This document shows positions 3,984-40,568 of a DNA stretch of 64,000 nt, piece after piece. The notes below the pieces were generated by a model. The model was not told the origin of the DNA. It ran no database searches and worked only from the letters and a program-made list of their open reading frames with translations. The translations under genes and the position numbers were made by a program. Position 1 is the stretch's first letter. Every line of letters begins with the position of its first letter. The stretch is taken from sequence record OR352942.1. The stretch is one strand, 5' to 3'. This DNA comes from Escherichia phage AV112.

Positions 3984-4999
3984 TGTGTTGCCTCAATATA
4001 AAGTTCGTTGGAATATTTGACCAGCGCTTCTCTGTCTTCGTCTGAGATATCTGGAATCGCGTCAATATATTCTTTAATGATATCTTGAAGAGATTTAATC
4101 TCGATTTCCTGGTCGTCATCAGATTCAACACTGTTATCAACTTTAGAAACCATACGAAGAGAGTGAACTACTTTTTCAAGTTCAGATTCAAACTTAGTCA
4201 ACTCTGAATCAATTTCTGATACTATAACACGTACGGCTAGATTAGTATAATCAGAATAATTGATTTTGCCTTTAAACGGATAAGTGATTCGTCGATGCCA
4301 TGTTGTTTCGTTAGGAATAAATTCCATACGTTCAACATCAGTGTCAAATACCCAAAATCCGCGCGGGTCGTTCTCATCACCTGCAGTAAGGGTCCATGGT
4401 GTCCCAATATATTTGACGTTAGCAGCTTCAGAGATTGTGTGGAAGTGGCCGGACCAGACTTGTTTATAGGTCTTTAAGAAATCAGGTTCAAGCCCATGAG
4501 ACTTCATTCCTTTATAGAAATAAAAACCATTCAGTTCCCAGTGCCCAACACAATACGCTGCGGAAGAAGTCTTGATGTGCTCTAAGATTTCACCTGTATT
4601 TTCTTCGCACATCCATGGAACGATATCAATCAGACATCCGTCAAAATCTACAGTAGTTGGATGCTCGTAAATAGTAAAGTTTTCAAATTGAGTTAACAAT
4701 TCAGAAACAGTGTTAGGTGTTATTGTATTCTTAAACGCCATGTCATGGTTTCCTATCGTGACATGAACGTGAATGCCTGCTTTAGAAATCATATCAACGA
4801 TTTCACGATTGAATTCCATTGTACGATGTGTTATTGCTTTACGGACGTCAAACCAATCACCGTACTGAATCCAAGTTTTAATCCCATGTTTCTTAGAGTA
4901 TTCAATTGCTTGACGAATACCATCACGTTGAATATCTTGAACCCATGGGTCGTCTTGTTTGACTCCGATATGGAAGTCGCCTAAGTGCAAAATTTTCAT
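3980..4999 (-). CDS. 47: gp47 recombination endonuclease subunit (Mre11/SbcD-like phosphoesterase)
   Basis: 339 aa; N-terminal MKILHLGDFHIG and GNHD metallophosphatase motifs; same length as T4 gp47. Confidence 0.92.
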   Translation of the reverse strand: MKILHLGDFHIGVKQDDPWVQDIQRDGIRQAIEYSKKHGIKTWIQYGDWFDVRKAITHRTMEFNREIVDMISKAGIHVHVTIGNHDMAFKNTITPNTVSELLTQFENFTIYEHPTTVDFDGCLIDIVPWMCEENTGEILEHIKTSSAAYCVGHWELNGFYFYKGMKSHGLEPDFLKTYKQVWSGHFHTISEAANVKYIGTPWTLTAGDENDPRGFWVFDTDVERMEFIPNETTWHRRITYPFKGKINYSDYTNLAVRVIVSEIDSELTKFESELEKVVHSLRMVSKVDNSVESDDDQEIEIKSLQDIIKEYIDAIPDISDEDREALVKYSNELYIEATQ

Positions 5000-27626: not shown

Positions 27627-27840
27627 AAGGAATTTCCTCATCGGTGGCAAGGTCATATTCGACCAATTGGATAGGCTCATTAATACCGTATCCGCGTACA
27701 GTGATATCGGTTGACGGATATTTTCCAGTAATATCACCAATTCTAAATGATTCAATGAATGATTGCTCGCCTGAGCAACTAAACCAGGCGGCAAAACATT
27801 TTAAAACATCTTCAGACCCTTCTATAATCAATTTAGCCAT
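27616..27840 (-). CDS. hypothetical protein
   Basis: 74-aa ORF. Confidence 0.35.
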   Translation of the reverse strand: MAKLIIEGSEDVLKCFAAWFSCSGEQSFIESFRIGDITGKYPSTDITVRGYGINEPIQLVEYDLATDEEIPYVD

Positions 27841-28202
27841 TATAGGCTCTCAGTAAAGGTACGAGCGATAACGTCGCGCTGCTGTTCCGGAGTCAGAGAG
27901 TTAAAGCGAACTGCATAACCGGATACACGGATGGTCAGCTGTGGATATTTTTCCGGATGCTTAACTGCATCTTCCAGAGTTTCACGACGCAGAACGTTAA
28001 CGTTCAGGTGTTGACCACCTTCAATTTTAACTTTAGGTTGATGTTCAATTTCAATTTCACGGGCATTCAAACCGTAGAAAATTTCTGGGTCTACAATAGC
28101 GTCTTCTTTAAAAGTCTTAGAGACAATAATCCGGGCTTGAGCACCGTCTTCAAAATAAATAGTGCCTTTATGTACACCTTCAAGAATTTGATATGCTTTC
28201 AT
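27840..28202 (-). CDS. grcA: autonomous glycyl-radical cofactor (GrcA/YfiD-like; T4 Y06I-like)
   Basis: 120 aa; C-terminal [61 protein letters not shown] matches E. coli GrcA as recalled, including the glycyl-radical RVSGYAV motif. Confidence 0.8.
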
Positions 28203-28208
28203 ATAACC

Positions 28209-28565
28209 TCAATTAGAAAATAAATTTATCCAAGATTTTTCTTTAATCAAAAATGGGTCGGAATTAAACGCCATTAAACTTTGGGTGATTAATCCCTTAA
28301 ATGGTCCATCAATAAATTCCATTTTGAAATGTGGAATACTAGTCATCAACCGTGCATTAGGAGCAGTACAAAGAACCTGCTGACCTGCGAACGGACCTTT
28401 AGTCAAACGATATCGTTTAGGTTTAAAATGGTAAATCTCGTAATTTTCTACAAGAGCCCTTTTATTGCATACTGGGCTGTTATAACAATACTCAAAAACT
28501 TCAATAGTGGTCATCATTGCATTCCAATCACAAAAAATTGAGGACGAGCAATACCGCCGATGCAA
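28209..28565 (-). CDS. hypothetical protein
   Basis: 118-aa ORF, Cys-rich N-terminus. Confidence 0.35.
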   Translation of the reverse strand: MHRRYCSSSIFCDWNAMMTTIEVFEYCYNSPVCNKRALVENYEIYHFKPKRYRLTKGPFAGQQVLCTAPNARLMTSIPHFKMEFIDGPFKGLITQSLMAFNSDPFLIKEKSWINLFSN

Positions 28566-29053
28566 TATTTGCTTTTGCAGCAGTGCTGTATTGCTTTAAT
28601 ATGGACATTGTAAATCTTATCCATATCAGGAGCTTTAATAGGCTCGTCAATTATATACAGAATACGAGAAAGCGTTAATCCACGGAATTTAGAACCTTCA
28701 TTACCAATAAAACTACGGACAGAATCAGTAAATAAACGGAATCGAATATCATCGCTAGAATAACGTGAAAATTCTTTTTTAATGTTGCCAGCAGAAATTT
28801 TAGCATAAGCTGAAGTATTAGAAAGAACAATAACTGTTCCACCATCGAGCAGCCAATTAGCGGCAAAATTAGTTACTGCGGTAGATTTACCAGATTGTCT
28901 GCCACCGTCTAAACGAAGTGTACAGTACTGCTTGAGTACGTCTTCAAATGGTGGGGCACAACCGTTCTTACAAATTTCTTCTACTCTAGCATCAGAATGG
29001 TGTGTAAAAGCATTCATCAGGGATAGATAAGGTCCAGTTAAAAATGTTCTCAT
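28514..29053 (-). CDS. P-loop NTPase
   Basis: Walker A GGRQSGKST and Walker B ILYIIDEP; start placed at MRTFLTGPY. Confidence 0.5.
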   Translation of the reverse strand: MRTFLTGPYLSLMNAFTHHSDARVEEICKNGCAPPFEDVLKQYCTLRLDGGRQSGKSTAVTNFAANWLLDGGTVIVLSNTSAYAKISAGNIKKEFSRYSSDDIRFRLFTDSVRSFIGNEGSKFRGLTLSRILYIIDEPIKAPDMDKIYNVHIKAIQHCCKSKYCIGGIARPQFFVIGMQ

Positions 29054-29294
29054 ATTATTTCTCTTAAGGTTTGGGCCATTCCATGGCACATGTTAGGTCC
29101 TTCGATTCGCTATGTAAACCCATTACCGCACTTGGGCTCGACCTTATTACAGGTTGGCGGGAATCCCTCATAGAATCATGAGGTCCAGGTTGTTCCCATG
29201 TTATTTGAATGTAAATATTTTTGCCGTAATACTTATACCAGTGTGGCTTCGTTAAAATTTTTTCATCGAGTCATTTTACCTCTCCAAGTAATTA

Positions 29295-29328
29295 TGAATA
29301 TACTATCACAATTTTAGGAGAAAGTAAA
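29295..29328 (-). promoter_or_regulatory. early promoter upstream of the structured leader 29090-29294
   Basis: RC reads GTTTAC-N18-TAGTAT. Confidence 0.4.
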
Positions 29329-29331
29329 CTG

Positions 29332-29634
29332 TTATTTACCTTTAATTACTTTAGCTGCTTCGATAGCCGCTTGCTGAAGGTCATCCATCGACATACCGAA
29401 TTTAGAAGCAAAGTTATCAATTTTCTTTTCGACAGCATTCAAAGGCTTGGCCTGTTTACCTTCATTAGCGCCAGGAAGAGCGAGAATACGCTCTTTGTCA
29501 ATATAAAGGCTTACAAGTTTCTTACGGTCTTTATCGGACAAATCATGAAATGAATGGGCCTTTTTATTTATAGCGGCTTCTAATTTACCTGCACTCACTC
29601 GCGCTTCAGTAATAAATTCTTGATATGTTTTCAT
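29332..29634 (-). CDS. ipII: internal protein with capsid-targeting sequence (IPII-like)
   Basis: 100 aa; N-terminus MKTYQEFITEA matches the T4 internal-protein capsid-targeting sequence MKTYQEFIAE; same length as T4 IPII. Confidence 0.7.
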   Translation of the reverse strand: MKTYQEFITEARVSAGKLEAAINKKAHSFHDLSDKDRKKLVSLYIDKERILALPGANEGKQAKPLNAVEKKIDNFASKFGMSMDDLQQAAIEAAKVIKGK

Positions 29635-29675
29635 ATGTTTCCTTTAAATGTAAATAGGCCTAAATATAGGCCTTA

Positions 29676-30254
29676 TTAATTACCACGGGCTGCATTAGCA
29701 ACGGCGTAAGCGTACTGAACATTAGCGTCTTTAAACGTACCTTTAGAGGTATCTAGTTCTGCCTTAAAGCCACCTTTAGCCATAACATCGGCAAATTCTT
29801 TACGGAAGGCCATTGCATCAAGACCTTTCCATGATGATTTGTGCTTGGCGAATTCAAGACCAGCGTAGTTGACAGCCTTAGCTAATTTATTATCAATGAC
29901 CCATTTACCGGCTTTAGGCACAAACACCGGGCCTTTCTGTTTAGAGAATAGTTTTAAATTCCAGCGACGAAGATCACTGTCGGCTTTAACAAAAGCTGCG
30001 TCTAAGTTACTAGCAACAACATCTTGAATATGGCCAAATTTAAGCCCATCAACTTCAATATTTAAATCGGTACGCCAGCGAAGTCCTTCCCAAGCGAAGG
30101 CTTTAAAATCAGAAGCTTTTGTGGCTAGATATCGTTCAAGTGGAGCAGTTTTAGGGTCAAAGCCGTTACCGCCACGATAAGTCCACTCGTCCTTATTAAT
30201 GCCTTGAGCTTTTCCTGCAAAGGCCTCGGCGATAAATTCTTTATATGTTTTCAT
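29676..30254 (-). CDS. ipIII: internal protein with capsid-targeting sequence (IPIII-like)
   Basis: 192 aa; N-terminus MKTYKEFIAEA; length similar to T4 IPIII. Confidence 0.7.
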   Translation of the reverse strand: MKTYKEFIAEAFAGKAQGINKDEWTYRGGNGFDPKTAPLERYLATKASDFKAFAWEGLRWRTDLNIEVDGLKFGHIQDVVASNLDAAFVKADSDLRRWNLKLFSKQKGPVFVPKAGKWVIDNKLAKAVNYAGLEFAKHKSSWKGLDAMAFRKEFADVMAKGGFKAELDTSKGTFKDANVQYAYAVANAARGN

Positions 30255-30277
30255 TTTTGTTTCCTTGTTTGTTTTGA

Positions 30278-30314
30278 TAGAGTAATTATACCATATTAAT
30301 ACTTAAGCGTAAAC
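30278..30314 (-). promoter_or_regulatory. early promoter GTTTAC-N18-TATAAT
   Basis: RC of gatagagtaattataccatattaatacttaagcgtaaac. Confidence 0.5.
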
Positions 30315-30317
30315 TGT

Positions 30318-30578
30318 TTAAGCTTTACCGCCGGAAATAATTCCGAAGTTGTTAAAATCGTATCCAATATCGTCAACATCTACTTTAGGACTTGTAGCAA
30401 CATAAGCAATTTCACTACGTTTTGCATAGGTGTTGATTTCTTTACCATCGCCACCTAAGAAAAAATACCCATTACGTTTTAATGAGCCAAAGTCTTCCGC
30501 ATCACCAATGAAAGCTTTAACTTTAAATTTAGGACCTTTGGCATCTGCTTCAGCGATAAATTCTTGATACATTTTCAT
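30318..30578 (-). CDS. internal-protein-like small protein with capsid-targeting sequence
   Basis: 86 aa; N-terminus MKMYQEFIAEA. Confidence 0.6.
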   Translation of the reverse strand: MKMYQEFIAEADAKGPKFKVKAFIGDAEDFGSLKRNGYFFLGGDGKEINTYAKRSEIAYVATSPKVDVDDIGYDFNNFGIISGGKA

Positions 30579-30584
30579 TTTTCC

Positions 30585-30998
30585 TTAGTAAATTGATTTA
30601 CCATAGTATTTGTACCAAGTAGGACGTTGAGCAATTTTTTCATCTAAGCGTGCTTGACTTATCGCAATGGACGCTTCGGACGGGACATAATTATTACGAA
30701 ATTCGGCAGGGATGTCGGAAATATCCTGGACAGTCGTGTCCTTGATTTTGAAACCACGTTTCAAGCATTCAGCGATTAGCTCGATTTGTCGTAAACGTAA
30801 AAATTCGAGTTTGTCGTAAAAGAATGTTACGTGGCCGGTGCCTAAGATAAATGTTGGAGAGATTTTAAAATCCTTTACACGTTTACCATTTTGAACATGT
30901 TTACGGACTGCACCGAATACACGAGGTAATTCACGATACTCAGCCATAAGATGTTGGTCGGTCAGTTCAGAAACAAGTGTTAAATTGATACGGGTCAT
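30585..30998 (-). CDS. denV: DenV endonuclease V (pyrimidine-dimer DNA glycosylase)
   Basis: From the internal Met: [92 protein letters not shown], near-identical to T4 DenV as recalled. Confidence 0.92.
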
Positions 30999-39740: not shown

Positions 39741-39816
39741 TGGTCGAGACAGTAGGGGTCGAACCTACGACCTAGGACTTAGAAGGTCCTTGCTCTTCCT
39801 TCTGAGCTATGCCTCG
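39741..39816 (-). tRNA. tRNA-Arg (anticodon TCT), CCA encoded
   Basis: Manual fold: acceptor CGAGGCA/TGTCTCG, D-arm GCTC..GAGC, anticodon loop CTTCTAA, T-arm GTAGG-TTCGACC-CCTAC. Confidence 0.8.
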
Positions 39817-39820
39817 GATT

Positions 39821-39895
39821 TGGCGGACATGCATGGATTCGAACCATGGACCAATTGATTAACAGTCAACTGCTCTACCACTGAGCTACACATCC
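39821..39895 (-). tRNA. tRNA-Asn (anticodon GTT), CCA encoded
   Basis: Manual fold: acceptor GGATGTG/CATGTCC, D-arm GCTC-AGTGGTA-GAGC, anticodon loop CTGTTAA, T-loop TTCGAAT. Confidence 0.75.
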
Positions 39896-39899
39896 AAAT

Positions 39900-39986
39900 T
39901 GGTTGGGAGTGATGGAGTCGAACCACCTGAGTCGCAATGACAATGGATTTACAGTCCACACCGCTACCTCTACGGGATAACTCCCC
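39900..39986 (-). tRNA. tRNA-Tyr (anticodon GTA), long variable arm, CCA encoded
   Basis: Manual fold: anticodon stem GTGGA/TCCAT, loop CTGTAAA, about 15-nt variable arm, T-arm GGTGG-TTCGACT-CCATC; pair 1:72 appears as G-A, so the 5' end is uncertain by 1 nt. Confidence 0.6.
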
Positions 39987-39995
39987 AAATTAATT

Positions 39996-40070
39996 TGGTG
40001 GCCCTGGGTGGAATTGAACCACCATCTGGCGATTATGAGTCGCTTGCTTGAACCTTCCAGCTACAGGGCC
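39996..40070 (-). tRNA. tRNA with anticodon CAT (Ile2/lysidine type or elongator Met), CCA encoded
   Basis: Manual fold: acceptor GGCCCTG/CAGGGCC (1:72 paired, so not initiator), anticodon loop CTCATAA, T-arm GGTGG-TTCAATT-CCACC. Confidence 0.7.
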
Positions 40071-40071
40071 T

Positions 40072-40147
40072 TGGTGCTGATTGACGGAATTGAACCACCG
40101 ACCTTCTCATTACAAGTGAGTTGCTCTACCTACTGAGCTAAATCAGC
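40072..40147 (-). tRNA. tRNA-Thr (anticodon TGT), CCA encoded
   Basis: Manual fold: acceptor GCTGATT/AATCAGC, D-arm GCTC-AGTAGGTA-GAGC, anticodon loop CTTGTAA. Confidence 0.8.
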
Positions 40148-40152
40148 AAAAC

Positions 40153-40242
40153 TGGCGGAGGCGATAGGATTTGAACCTATGAGTCGCCGGAGCGACTGCC
40201 GGTTTTCAAGACCGGTGCATTAAACCACTCTGCCACGCCTCC
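40153..40242 (-). tRNA. tRNA-Ser (anticodon TGA), type II, CCA encoded
   Basis: Manual fold: acceptor GGAGGCG/CGCCTCC, anticodon stem CCGGT/ACCGG, loop CTTGAAA, long variable arm, T-arm ATAGG-TTCAAAT-CCTAT. Confidence 0.8.
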
Positions 40243-40244
40243 AG

Positions 40245-40318
40245 TCTCCATACAAGGATTTGAACCTTGGACCTCCTGATCCCAAATCAGGCGCTCTACC
40301 AAACTGAGCTACACGGAG
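40245..40318 (-). tRNA. tRNA-Pro (anticodon TGG), no encoded CCA; 2 nt upstream of tRNA-Ser
   Basis: Manual fold: acceptor CTCCGTG/TATGGAG, D-arm GCTC-AGTTTGGTA-GAGC, anticodon loop TTTGGGA, T-arm CAAGG-TTCAAAT-CCTTG. Confidence 0.8.
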
Positions 40319-40328
40319 TAAATTAAAT

Positions 40329-40402
<74 letters not shown>

Positions 40403-40407
40403 AAATT

Positions 40408-40494
40408 TGGTGCGAGAAGTGGGACTCGAACCCACAAGGAAATCATTCCGCAGCATTTTAAGTGCTGTGCCTTTACCAATTTGACCATTCTCGC
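40408..40494 (-). tRNA. tRNA-Leu (anticodon TAA), type II, CCA encoded
   Basis: Manual fold: acceptor GCGAGAA/TTCTCGC, anticodon stem CAGCA/TGCTG, loop CTTAAAA, long variable arm, T-arm GTGGG-TTCGAGT-CCCAC. Confidence 0.8.
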
Positions 40495-40495
40495 G

Positions 40496-40568
40496 CTGGG
40501 AATAAAGGACTCGAACCTTTGCATCCTGGAATCAAAATCCAGTGCCTTACCAACTTGGCTAATTCCCA
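40496..40568 (-). tRNA. tRNA-Gln (anticodon TTG), no encoded CCA; 1 nt upstream of tRNA-Leu
   Basis: Manual fold: acceptor TGGGAAT/ATTCCCA, anticodon stem CTGGA/TCCAG, loop TTTTGAT, T-arm AAAGG-TTCGAGT-CCTTT. Confidence 0.8.

Follow-up and report, generated by a model that had tools for sequence, protein, structure and literature searches.

What does the spacer ahead of the gene vs.8 encode in Escherichia phage AV112 (OR352942.1), where some 240 bp of the minus strand carry no sizeable gene? We analyzed a 64,000-nucleotide stretch of this genome (the window) and within it the piece at 29,054 to 29,331. A sequence-only reading had described the spacer as a leader with a strong ribosome-binding site (RBS), two tiny upstream open reading frames (uORFs) and internal hairpins, and had proposed either translational control of the next gene or a small regulatory RNA. 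On their own, the tiny open reading frames (ORFs) and a 6-bp hairpin in 240 nt are within chance expectation. The region goes beyond chance because comparison with relatives reveals denV homology in its 5′ part, and conservation and covariation in its 3′ part. We consider it very likely that two unrelated parts make up the 240-bp spacer, the remnant of a second denV gene and a conserved structured RNA element, and that this is the best explanation of the whole.

A conserved element with a covarying core

The 3′ part of the spacer (~29066-29197, minus strand) is a candidate structured RNA element that appears to be non-coding. It is composed of a 5′ hairpin domain (P0), a 32-nt core with its closing helix (P1), and a 3′ extension that is present in T4-type phages only (Table 1). 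The core is predicted to be a small three-way junction of the helices P1, P2 and P3. In an alignment of 48 copies, 22 of the 32 core nucleotides are invariant. P0 ends one nucleotide ahead of P1, and each lineage has its own P0 hairpin. A covariance model (CM) finds the element at 29110-29166 with 74.1 bits (E 2e-22) as the sole copy in the window, where the next match scores 9 bits. The G+C content of the conserved stretch downstream of the denV remnant is ~51%, vs. ~35% in the neighborhood.

The copies used for comparison came from a degenerate pattern, which retrieved 39 viral and 28 metagenomic loci with 70 distinct copies. The closing helix, which has a bulged purine at +2, carries most of the variation among the 48 aligned distinct copies. 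Pair 12:45 is AU in 26, UA in 9, UG in 6, CG in 5 and GC in 2 copies, and is never unpaired. Pair 11:47 is CG in 34, GC in 7, UA in 5, and AU and GU in one each, again with no copy unpaired, and pair 10:48 is CG in 39, GC in 7 and AU in 1, with a single unpaired copy. The three P1 pairs are 98-100% paired with three to five pair types each, in 14 sequence states. G.U outnumbers A.C by 7:1 in these pairs, and by 21:3 if the fourth P1 pair is included. Over a 50-copy alignment 89.8% of the cells are paired, vs. 25-43% in slid registers, and compensatory (double) changes occur in 7 of the 12 core pairs (50 distinct copies), values that none of 500 shuffles reached. The compensatory substitutions are spread across independent lineages, as is expected of a structured non-coding RNA.

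The other helices change less often. A C-G to U-A swap in P3 is found in the Vibrio phage copies and in locus L077 (L numbers denote individual loci, and positions given with them are those of the locus). A divergent second copy in L070 reads GCCU...AGGC, an A-U to G-C change in P2, and GUC-CGC-GAC, where P3 is swapped again. P0 occurs in two types. In type A (12 copies) the outer stem is 96.7% paired with one A-U to G-C swap, and the inner hairpin, 100% paired, shows a single C-G to U-A swap along with two U.G pairs. In type B the outer stem is positionally equivalent, and its pair 14:61 is GC in 10, CG in 9 and AU in one copy. The inverted repeat CCTCAT/ATGAGG, which the sequence-only reading had pointed out, is indeed present on the minus strand and would form the inner P0 hairpin in AV112. 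A folded sense transcript is favored by the tolerance of G.U and avoidance of A.C, and by the orientation of the element, which is that of the flanking genes and tRNAs.

Covariation is the sole basis of the proposed fold, and several points weigh against it. Much of the core is fixed by the pattern with which most copies were gathered, and core conservation among them is therefore inflated, although P1 and P0 lie outside the pattern. P2 and P3 are nearly invariant, and each is backed by just one to three compensatory events. Type-B P0 has A.C rather than G.U at one terminal pair. Single-sequence folds of the leader, the block and 17 lineage representatives are no stabler than shuffled controls (z −1.7 to +1.3); for the whole leader z is −0.16, and for an 85-nt block +0.05. 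Minimum free energy prediction and RNAalifold both miss the short, bulged P1. On the core alignment RNAalifold recovers P2 and pairs GCC with GGU in place of P3; we prefer P3 because its C-G to U-A swap recurs in three lineages.

Two further helices were considered and are not part of the proposed fold. In type-B P0, columns 20-24 could pair with 39-43 as an additional, pseudoknot-like helix, which was dropped because only 49.5% is paired. A stem in the 3′ domain (ACAU/AUGU, or a GGG...CCC closure) is not claimed, its registers being inconsistent across lineages. We also set aside the contrast between core identity (0.96) and vs.8 identity (0.62) as evidence, as it is biased by the pattern ascertainment.

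The 3′ extension links the core to the vs.8 RBS with the consensus UUUACA, A(A/U)GGA(C/U) and a hairpin GCCA-NGGAA-UGGC. We looked for convincing covariation in this part of the T4-type alignment and found none. The extension may add an effect in cis. It carries GGA motifs (29075-29102), namely AAGGAC and the loop of GCCAUGGAAUGGC, and the corresponding hairpin of the second copy in L058 (~560-600) reads GCCAAGGAUGGC. This L058 hairpin matches the CsrA SELEX core (CARGGAUG), a possible link to CsrA only.

The block is unlikely to encode protein

In the T4 reference record (NC_000866) Vs.8 has 219 aa, and its first 40 codons (MRDSRQPVIRSSPSAVMG...) overlie the conserved core (record ~64851-64907; L004 2352-2408; 29110-29166 in the window). 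Conservation of the block could then be that of the N-terminal 40 residues of Vs.8, or of a small independent ORF. The coding frame is open and fused to vs.8 also in JS09 and L075, and one core difference between T4 and the window is synonymous in it. The block hardly differs between the window, JE01, JS09 and T4, and the frame of the T4 extension is broken in the window and in JE01. Among 69 distinct copies only the translated core is shared: starts, stops and flanks differ, and many copies have no start codon. A stop falls inside the core in 9 of the 69 in the T4 vs.8 frame, and every copy has a stop in a second frame. An in-frame fusion to the next gene is found in three, and there is no conserved ORF. 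The PHROG 1488 profile for Vs.8 begins at the MRTF start, downstream of the block. Moreover, the block is found in tRNA arrays and ahead of terminators, and a peptide would not predict covariation of paired columns. Protein coding is thus highly improbable as the cause of conservation, and the T4 vs.8 coding sequence (CDS) is probably over-extended by 120 nt. The absence of any ORF above 35 codons, on which the sequence-only reading had remarked, is true of the minus strand of the spacer (its longest ORF, at 29064-29171, has exactly 35 codons); on the plus strand there is a trivial ORF of 39 codons.

Distribution and genomic context

A sensitive BLAST with the block alone matched 1,069-1,090 phage records, T4 included. 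In divergent T4-type genera (phages of Klebsiella, Enterobacter, Yersinia, Citrobacter, and Salmonella) the block is the sole alignable part of the region. Its central ~43 nt recur at 86-95% identity in phages that are not of the T4 type: rV5-like Vequintavirus, Phapecoctavirus, 137-kb Vibrio phages, and phages of 44-47 kb (e.g., Ivi, 44 kb). These non-T4 copies are almost always in stretches without an annotated gene. A BLAST of the concatenated divergent lineages matched only at the core, in T4-type phages, and a search for relatives of vs.8 gave only six close loci. The 21-base core sub-pattern had no match in 185,579 bacterial and archaeal species (one genome each), and a BLAST of the 58-nt block against 5,426 complete E. 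coli genomes found nothing that would suggest mimicry of a host sequence.

In T4-type phages the element begins right after the stop codon of the upstream gene (denV, ipIII, other ip genes, and others) and ends at the RBS of vs.8, or, once, at the RBS of an ip gene (L022). Some Karamvirus-type phages have two tandem copies ~114 nt apart, of which the second is divergent (42-50 bits) and was found with the CM (L058 358-414 and 472-526; L074 9016-9072 and 9130-9184; L070 5199-5255 and 5088-5142). In at least six non-T4 lineages the element lies in or near tRNA operons and shares their strand. It is ~550 nt upstream of the tRNA operon in rV5-like phages, 200-350 nt upstream in 46-kb phages, within the tRNA array in Phapecoctavirus and L077, and ~45 nt past a tRNA in L062 and L079. 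In L079 (6576-6800) it starts 45 nt after a tRNA-Ser, and an intrinsic terminator (AAAAGCCC-AACTA-AGGGCTTTTATTT) comes within the next ~25 nt, as would be the case for the last gene of a tRNA operon.

Some observations on these neighborhoods stand by themselves. The window has a 10-gene tRNA array at 39741-40568 (minus strand), ~10 kb upstream of the element and on the same strand, where no copy is detected by the CM. In rV5-like and related phages the tRNA arrays include, according to ARAGORN, tRNA-like genes whose anticodons have four bases (atcc, gtac, ctgg) (L011 3082-3180, L033 2586-2684, L040 4505-4594, L062 3587-3669). A motif, AGAGGGCTTGA[T/A]AGTGC, flanks the element on both sides in one rV5-like lineage (L046 ~4640-4800), and in rV5 it is found upstream; the motif might be a regulatory repeat of this lineage.

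We found no known RNA family at the element. Rfam 15 gave no match at E ≤ 10 for the element alone, for 28000-30500, or for the element position in eight non-T4 loci. ARAGORN finds 10 tRNAs in the window, none of them at the spacer, and no tRNA-model match coincides with the element in the other loci. No terminator-like site was found in 29054-29331.

The position before vs.8 would suit a riboswitch-like or protein-responsive leader that controls the next gene in cis. About 40 distinct T4-type copies directly precede the vs.8 RBS, the closing helix encloses a conserved junction as in small aptamers, and the conserved GGA motifs and the hairpin of the 3′ extension adjoin the RBS. However, a riboswitch would be expected to keep one downstream gene class and an expression platform, and what follows the element differs: vs.8, an ip gene (L022), ORF74 beyond a promoter of its own in rV5, tRNA-Gly in phiWec190, a terminator in L079. 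Alternative pairing that would sequester the RBS was not found, nor was an Rfam aptamer. With no conserved feature downstream, the element is unlikely to serve in general as a riboswitch or as the leader of a particular gene. Its placement where genes or tRNAs meet, immediately behind a stop codon or a tRNA, could also be that of a new small self-cleaving ribozyme, or of a dedicated RNase processing signal that splits tRNA operons and early RNAs of several genes. The junction is compact and highly conserved, its flanking helices vary and it is restricted to phages, which agrees with this, but the helices are very short and nothing in Rfam points to ribozyme similarity; we think it very unlikely.

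The structured element accounts for what could be retained of the sequence-only reading. A small regulatory RNA or structured leader fits insofar as the 3′ ~130 nt are conserved, covarying and apparently non-coding. To call it a leader of the "NTPase gene", as vs.8 had been described, is probably too narrow.

The 5′ part is a decayed second denV

Aligned with its relatives, 29205-29329 (minus strand) contains the putative promoter, the RBS, the start codon and the last ~20 codons of a second denV at the position that it has in T4 and JE01, between ipII and vs.8. Tequatrovirus JE01 has an intact 417-bp denV here, with promoter, RBS and downstream sequence identical to those of the window, and intact denV is also present at this position in VIPECOOM01-03. 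Thus, the protein-coding gene in relatives that would speak against a regulatory leader exists for the 5′ ~125 nt. In the window only 8 nt of the 5′ end of the gene and ~60 nt of its 3′ end are left, homologous base for base to the JE01-type denV, and the former stop codon TAA is mutated to CAA. The spacer opens with ATG ACT CGA (M T R, the start of DenV), and another frame then gives LDEKILTKPHWYKYYGKNIY, the end of DenV. Compared with JE01-type denV, 347 bp are missing between gene positions 2 and 349, and both breakpoints are in the repeat GACTCG. The loss is, on this alignment, a classical microhomology deletion that removed codons 3-118. The frame is shifted, as 347 is not a multiple of three. 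A functional denV would read through ~138 codons without a break, with homology to T4 endonuclease V, and 29205-29274 does not (deletion, frameshift, lost stop). The stretch has what is expected of a denV pseudogene: both ends are homologous, the position is orthologous and the gene is intact in relatives.

The identical junction occurs in 15 records, which represent 13 phages of the HX01/RPN187 group; it is therefore an inherited allele and not an assembly error. In JS09 (L003 2862-2999) the same second denV was broken by an independent deletion at a GGCAAA microhomology, and the product is annotated as a 45-aa "DenV" (JS09_060). L005 and L009 are without the whole segment that holds the remnant, and in most T4-type phages the place is empty or taken by a different gene. 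The phages with these denV deletions retain an intact RB69-type denV upstream; in the window it is at a second locus (30585-30998, minus strand), 1.3 kb upstream of the remnant. Given this intact gene, we infer that the second copy was redundant.

The promoter upstream of the spacer, the strong RBS, and the 3- and 4-codon ORFs behind it are all where the sequence-only reading had placed them (Table 1). The promoter agrees with the TTTACW-N17-TAYWAT form of the T4/PST PeSL promoters (PMC4122927) but for one −10 position. It scores 8/12 against the sigma-70 consensus, under the scan threshold of 9, and is hence unlisted by a simple promoter scan. Together these features had suggested that the two uORFs and the hairpins tune the translation of vs.8. 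The RBS, the ATG and the mini-ORFs are real, a promoter lies upstream, and the allele is stably inherited in 13 phages. However, the mini-ORFs are by-products of the denV deletion, and they are missing as uORFs from nearly all relatives that have vs.8 and the RNA element; when the spacer is compared among relatives, its 3′ part is conserved and the mini-ORFs are not. They also end ~200 nt ahead of the vs.8 start, without a geometry for coupling, and the leader has no terminator/antiterminator pair. Translational control by these uORFs is hardly credible. The denV scar is ordinary in itself: in a recombination hot-zone, a redundant gene has been decaying through microhomology deletion. It is a useful warning that a strong RBS with mini-ORFs can be a deletion scar.

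Table 1. Features of the spacer and its borders in the window (all on the minus strand).
Feature	Position	Strand	Description
vs.8, RBS and CDS	28514..29065	-	RBS AAGAGAAAUAAU; ATG at 29053; 179 aa; P-loop protein, function unassigned
3′ extension (T4-type phages only)	29066..29118	-	UUUACA; AAGGAC 29102-29097; hairpin GCCAUGGAAUGGC 29087-29075; conserved blocks in the T4-type alignment
Promoter-like TTTACA-N17-TAACAT	29090-29118	-	9/12; inside the 3′ extension; −35 kept in many T4-type copies, −10 not
Core and predicted closing helix P1	29119..29157	-	CCA 29157-29155 with U 29122 and GG 29120-29119; G 29121 bulged
Predicted P2	29154-29151 / 29144-29141	-	ACCU / AGGU; loop GUAAUA (consensus GURANA)
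J2/3		-	Core joining strand; CGA (consensus C(G)A)
Predicted P3	29137-29135 / 29131 and 29129-29128	-	GCC with G and GC; triloop; GCC-NNN-G(N)GC
J3/1	29127-29123	-	Core joining strand; GGUAA
Predicted P0, 5′ hairpin domain	29159..29197	-	Outer stem GGGAA 29197-29193 / UUCCC 29163-29159; inner stem CCUCAU / AUGAGG
Inverted repeat CCTCAT / ATGAGG	29183-29178 / 29171-29166	-	Read from the sequence
denV pseudogene remnant	29205..29274	-	Start ATGACTCG and last ~20 codons (LDEKILTKPHWYKYYGKNIYIQI) kept; aligned to denV of JE01 (L001:2884-3300) and JS09; translations
denV-derived stretch		-	Between ATGACTCG and ATGAAAAA; read as denV
10-bp direct repeat TATTTACATT	29208..29217 and 29647-29656	-	denV 3′ end and after the ipIII stem-loop; recombination junction in L005, L009
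"uORF2" ATG AAA AAA TTT TAA	29252..29266	-	denV codons (...L D E K I L T...) read out of frame
"uORF1" ATG ACT CGA TGA	29263..29274	-	denV start codon read into the frameshifted junction
Deletion junction	29267..29272	-	One remaining copy of the 6-bp direct repeat GACTCG; alignment with JE01
denV-derived RBS GGAGAGG	29279..29285	-	Same site ahead of the intact denV ATG in JE01
Putative early-type promoter of former denV	29300..29329	-	−35 GTTTAC 29329-29324; extended −10 TGTGATAGTAT 29310-29300; same upstream of intact denV in JE01

The locus and its recombination

The gene neighborhood is of the T4 type, and the window is that of an RB69-like Mosigvirus, with 100% identity (megablast) to the Escherichia phages vB_EcoM-RPN187 and AV113. 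The minus-strand genes run from nudE through e (lysozyme), one ip-like gene, denV, a further two ip genes and ipII to the spacer, and then through vs.8, vs.7 and vs.6 on to regB. PHROG 1488 covers residues 3-179 of Vs.8 (E 1e-77), and in Pfam it has P-loop and terminase-N matches that are all below threshold. The gene vs.6 (27840-28202, minus strand) encodes a GrcA-like autonomous glycyl-radical cofactor with an RVSGYAVRF motif.

In enterobacterial T4-type phages the RNA element is the fixed downstream border, right ahead of vs.8, of a variable region of internal-protein and denV cassettes. L005 and L009 have a single copy of TATTTACATT, and the 439-bp segment with ipII and the denV remnant is gone, which indicates repeat-mediated loss of a cassette. 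Shuffling by short homologies is known for the hyperplastic regions of T4-type phages (PMC2839356, PMC4122927), and the locus in the window agrees with this. Just past the ipIII-like gene is a perfect stem-loop (AGGCCT-ATATTT-AGGCCT, 29656-29673), followed by TTTACA; it is PeSL- or terminator-like and was flagged by a terminator scan.

Such a setting raises the question of whether the element is conserved as DNA: as a recombination anchor, a PeSL-type regulatory cassette, or a protein-binding site. Short-repeat recombination shuffles the locus while the element stays as the border, and PeSLs have been described for exactly such regions (PMC2839356, PMC4122927). The 3′ extension contains a promoter-like sequence, and sigma-70-like promoters follow the core in rV5 and Ivi. 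A PeSL has a stem-loop, then an early promoter (TTTACW-N17-TAYWAT) and a Shine-Dalgarno sequence; the extension has TTTACA-N17-TAACAT at 29118-29090, which scores 9/12 as a promoter. In relatives, however, the −35 TTTACA is kept and the −10 is not, which argues against an internal promoter as the cause of conservation of the extension. PeSLs are many per genome, and the CM finds a single copy in 64 kb, with a core unlike the PeSL consensus; the element is thus no member of a repeated PeSL family. The compensatory changes in P1, with their preference for G.U over A.C, point instead to a folded transcript of the sense strand, and a recombination anchor would leave the core in the tRNA operons of unrelated phage families unexplained. 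Conservation at the DNA level is, in our view, quite unlikely.

A possible role for the RNA element

We infer that the element acts as RNA. As a best guess, it would be a module of RNA, stable or processed, that binds a conserved host factor. The RNA would be transcribed within early polycistronic or tRNA-operon transcripts; in AV112 the surviving denV promoter presumably still transcribes into it. It would form a self-contained module, and a partner that the hosts of these phages have in common would recognize its invariant unpaired nucleotides. Candidates for this partner are host proteins or RNAs that take part in the processing or stability of RNA, in translation, or in tRNA-directed defense; otherwise the RNA might bind a ligand or act as a ribozyme itself. 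Conservation across unrelated phages suggests a shared host target.

We propose only tentatively, and would not be surprised to be wrong, that the core is a class of functional RNA not described before, which virulent phages of Enterobacteriaceae and Vibrio have in common although they are unrelated, and which acts in trans on a conserved host component. As such, it is a possibility that the core serves as a decoy or inhibitor of a tRNA- or RNA-directed defense or processing enzyme; alternatively, it could be a new small ribozyme or ligand sensor. A decoy would fit the association of the core with phage tRNA operons and the P2 loop CUGURAN, whose resemblance to the anticodon loops of tRNA-Tyr and tRNA-His may be chance. 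Separately, the Ivi-type cores have a 10-nt identity to positions 1497-1506 of 16S rRNA, and this may be chance as well.

Two points count against the inferred RNA module. The T4-type copies are far from tRNA genes and always in the leader of a gene, so that a cis-regulatory role is possible there, and a role of the DNA, e.g., as a recombination anchor, is also possible. We regard the first, control of the next gene (vs.8 in T4-type phages) by a leader acting in cis, as unlikely overall. The interest of the element as an RNA lies in its breadth, in its presence in T4 under a coding annotation, and in its testability.

Comparison with known systems

The 5′ part is best compared with denV itself (T4 endonuclease V, a pyrimidine-dimer glycosylase) and with the truncated copies in Mosigvirus. 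The map position, promoter, RBS and both gene ends are the same. Unlike the gene, the remnant has 347 bp missing, a broken frame and a mutated stop, and unlike the JS09 fragment it goes back to a deletion of its own. Leader-peptide regions with uORFs, such as the trpL attenuator or those of the ermCL type, also have an RBS, very short ORFs and hairpins ahead of a gene. In contrast to these, the mini-ORFs of the spacer are not conserved, are a deletion artefact ~200 nt from the vs.8 start, and are not accompanied by an alternative terminator/antiterminator.

The RNA element shares its setting with the PeSL cassettes (Arbiol et al., 2010, PMC2839356; Comeau et al., 2014, PMC4122927). Both are intergenic in the plastic ip/denV region, both adjoin cassettes that come and go through recombination at short homologies, and both have a stem-loop, a promoter-like sequence of the TTTACW type and a Shine-Dalgarno sequence. 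PeSLs are a repeated family whose stem-loops are of simple, variable sequence and act as terminators, whereas the element occurs once per 64 kb and has a near-invariant 32-nt core, a putative three-way junction, in common with non-T4 phage families. In architecture it is closer to small junction aptamers and ribozymes, e.g., purine riboswitches and hammerhead-like three-way junctions, with a closing P1, two hairpins, conserved joining strands and covarying helices. The likeness is one of architecture only: the element is smaller (P2 4 bp, P3 3 bp), matches nothing in Rfam and has no conserved downstream gene class.

The stable RNAs C and D of T4 (species 1 and 2), which are co-transcribed with the tRNA cluster, are likewise phage-encoded and have no assigned role (Uzan and Miller, 2010, PMC3014915). 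As with these RNAs, the element in non-T4 lineages sits inside or beside tRNA operons on the same strand. Unlike them, it is ~10 kb from the tRNA genes in T4-type phages, and the CM finds nothing similar near the tRNA array of the window. We did not find the motif or such an RNA described in the literature that we could search, although it may be already listed in a catalogue of 10,006 candidate viral RNAs (PMC10690425). The element is apparently an undescribed new family among the orphan non-coding RNAs of phages. The 2010 review of T4 stated that no riboswitch or trans-acting small RNA had been characterized in T4, and hoped that related genomes would yield candidates (PMC3014915). Found in more than 1,000 phages of several families, covarying, linked to tRNA operons and restricted to phages, the element is a candidate T4 RNA of this kind.

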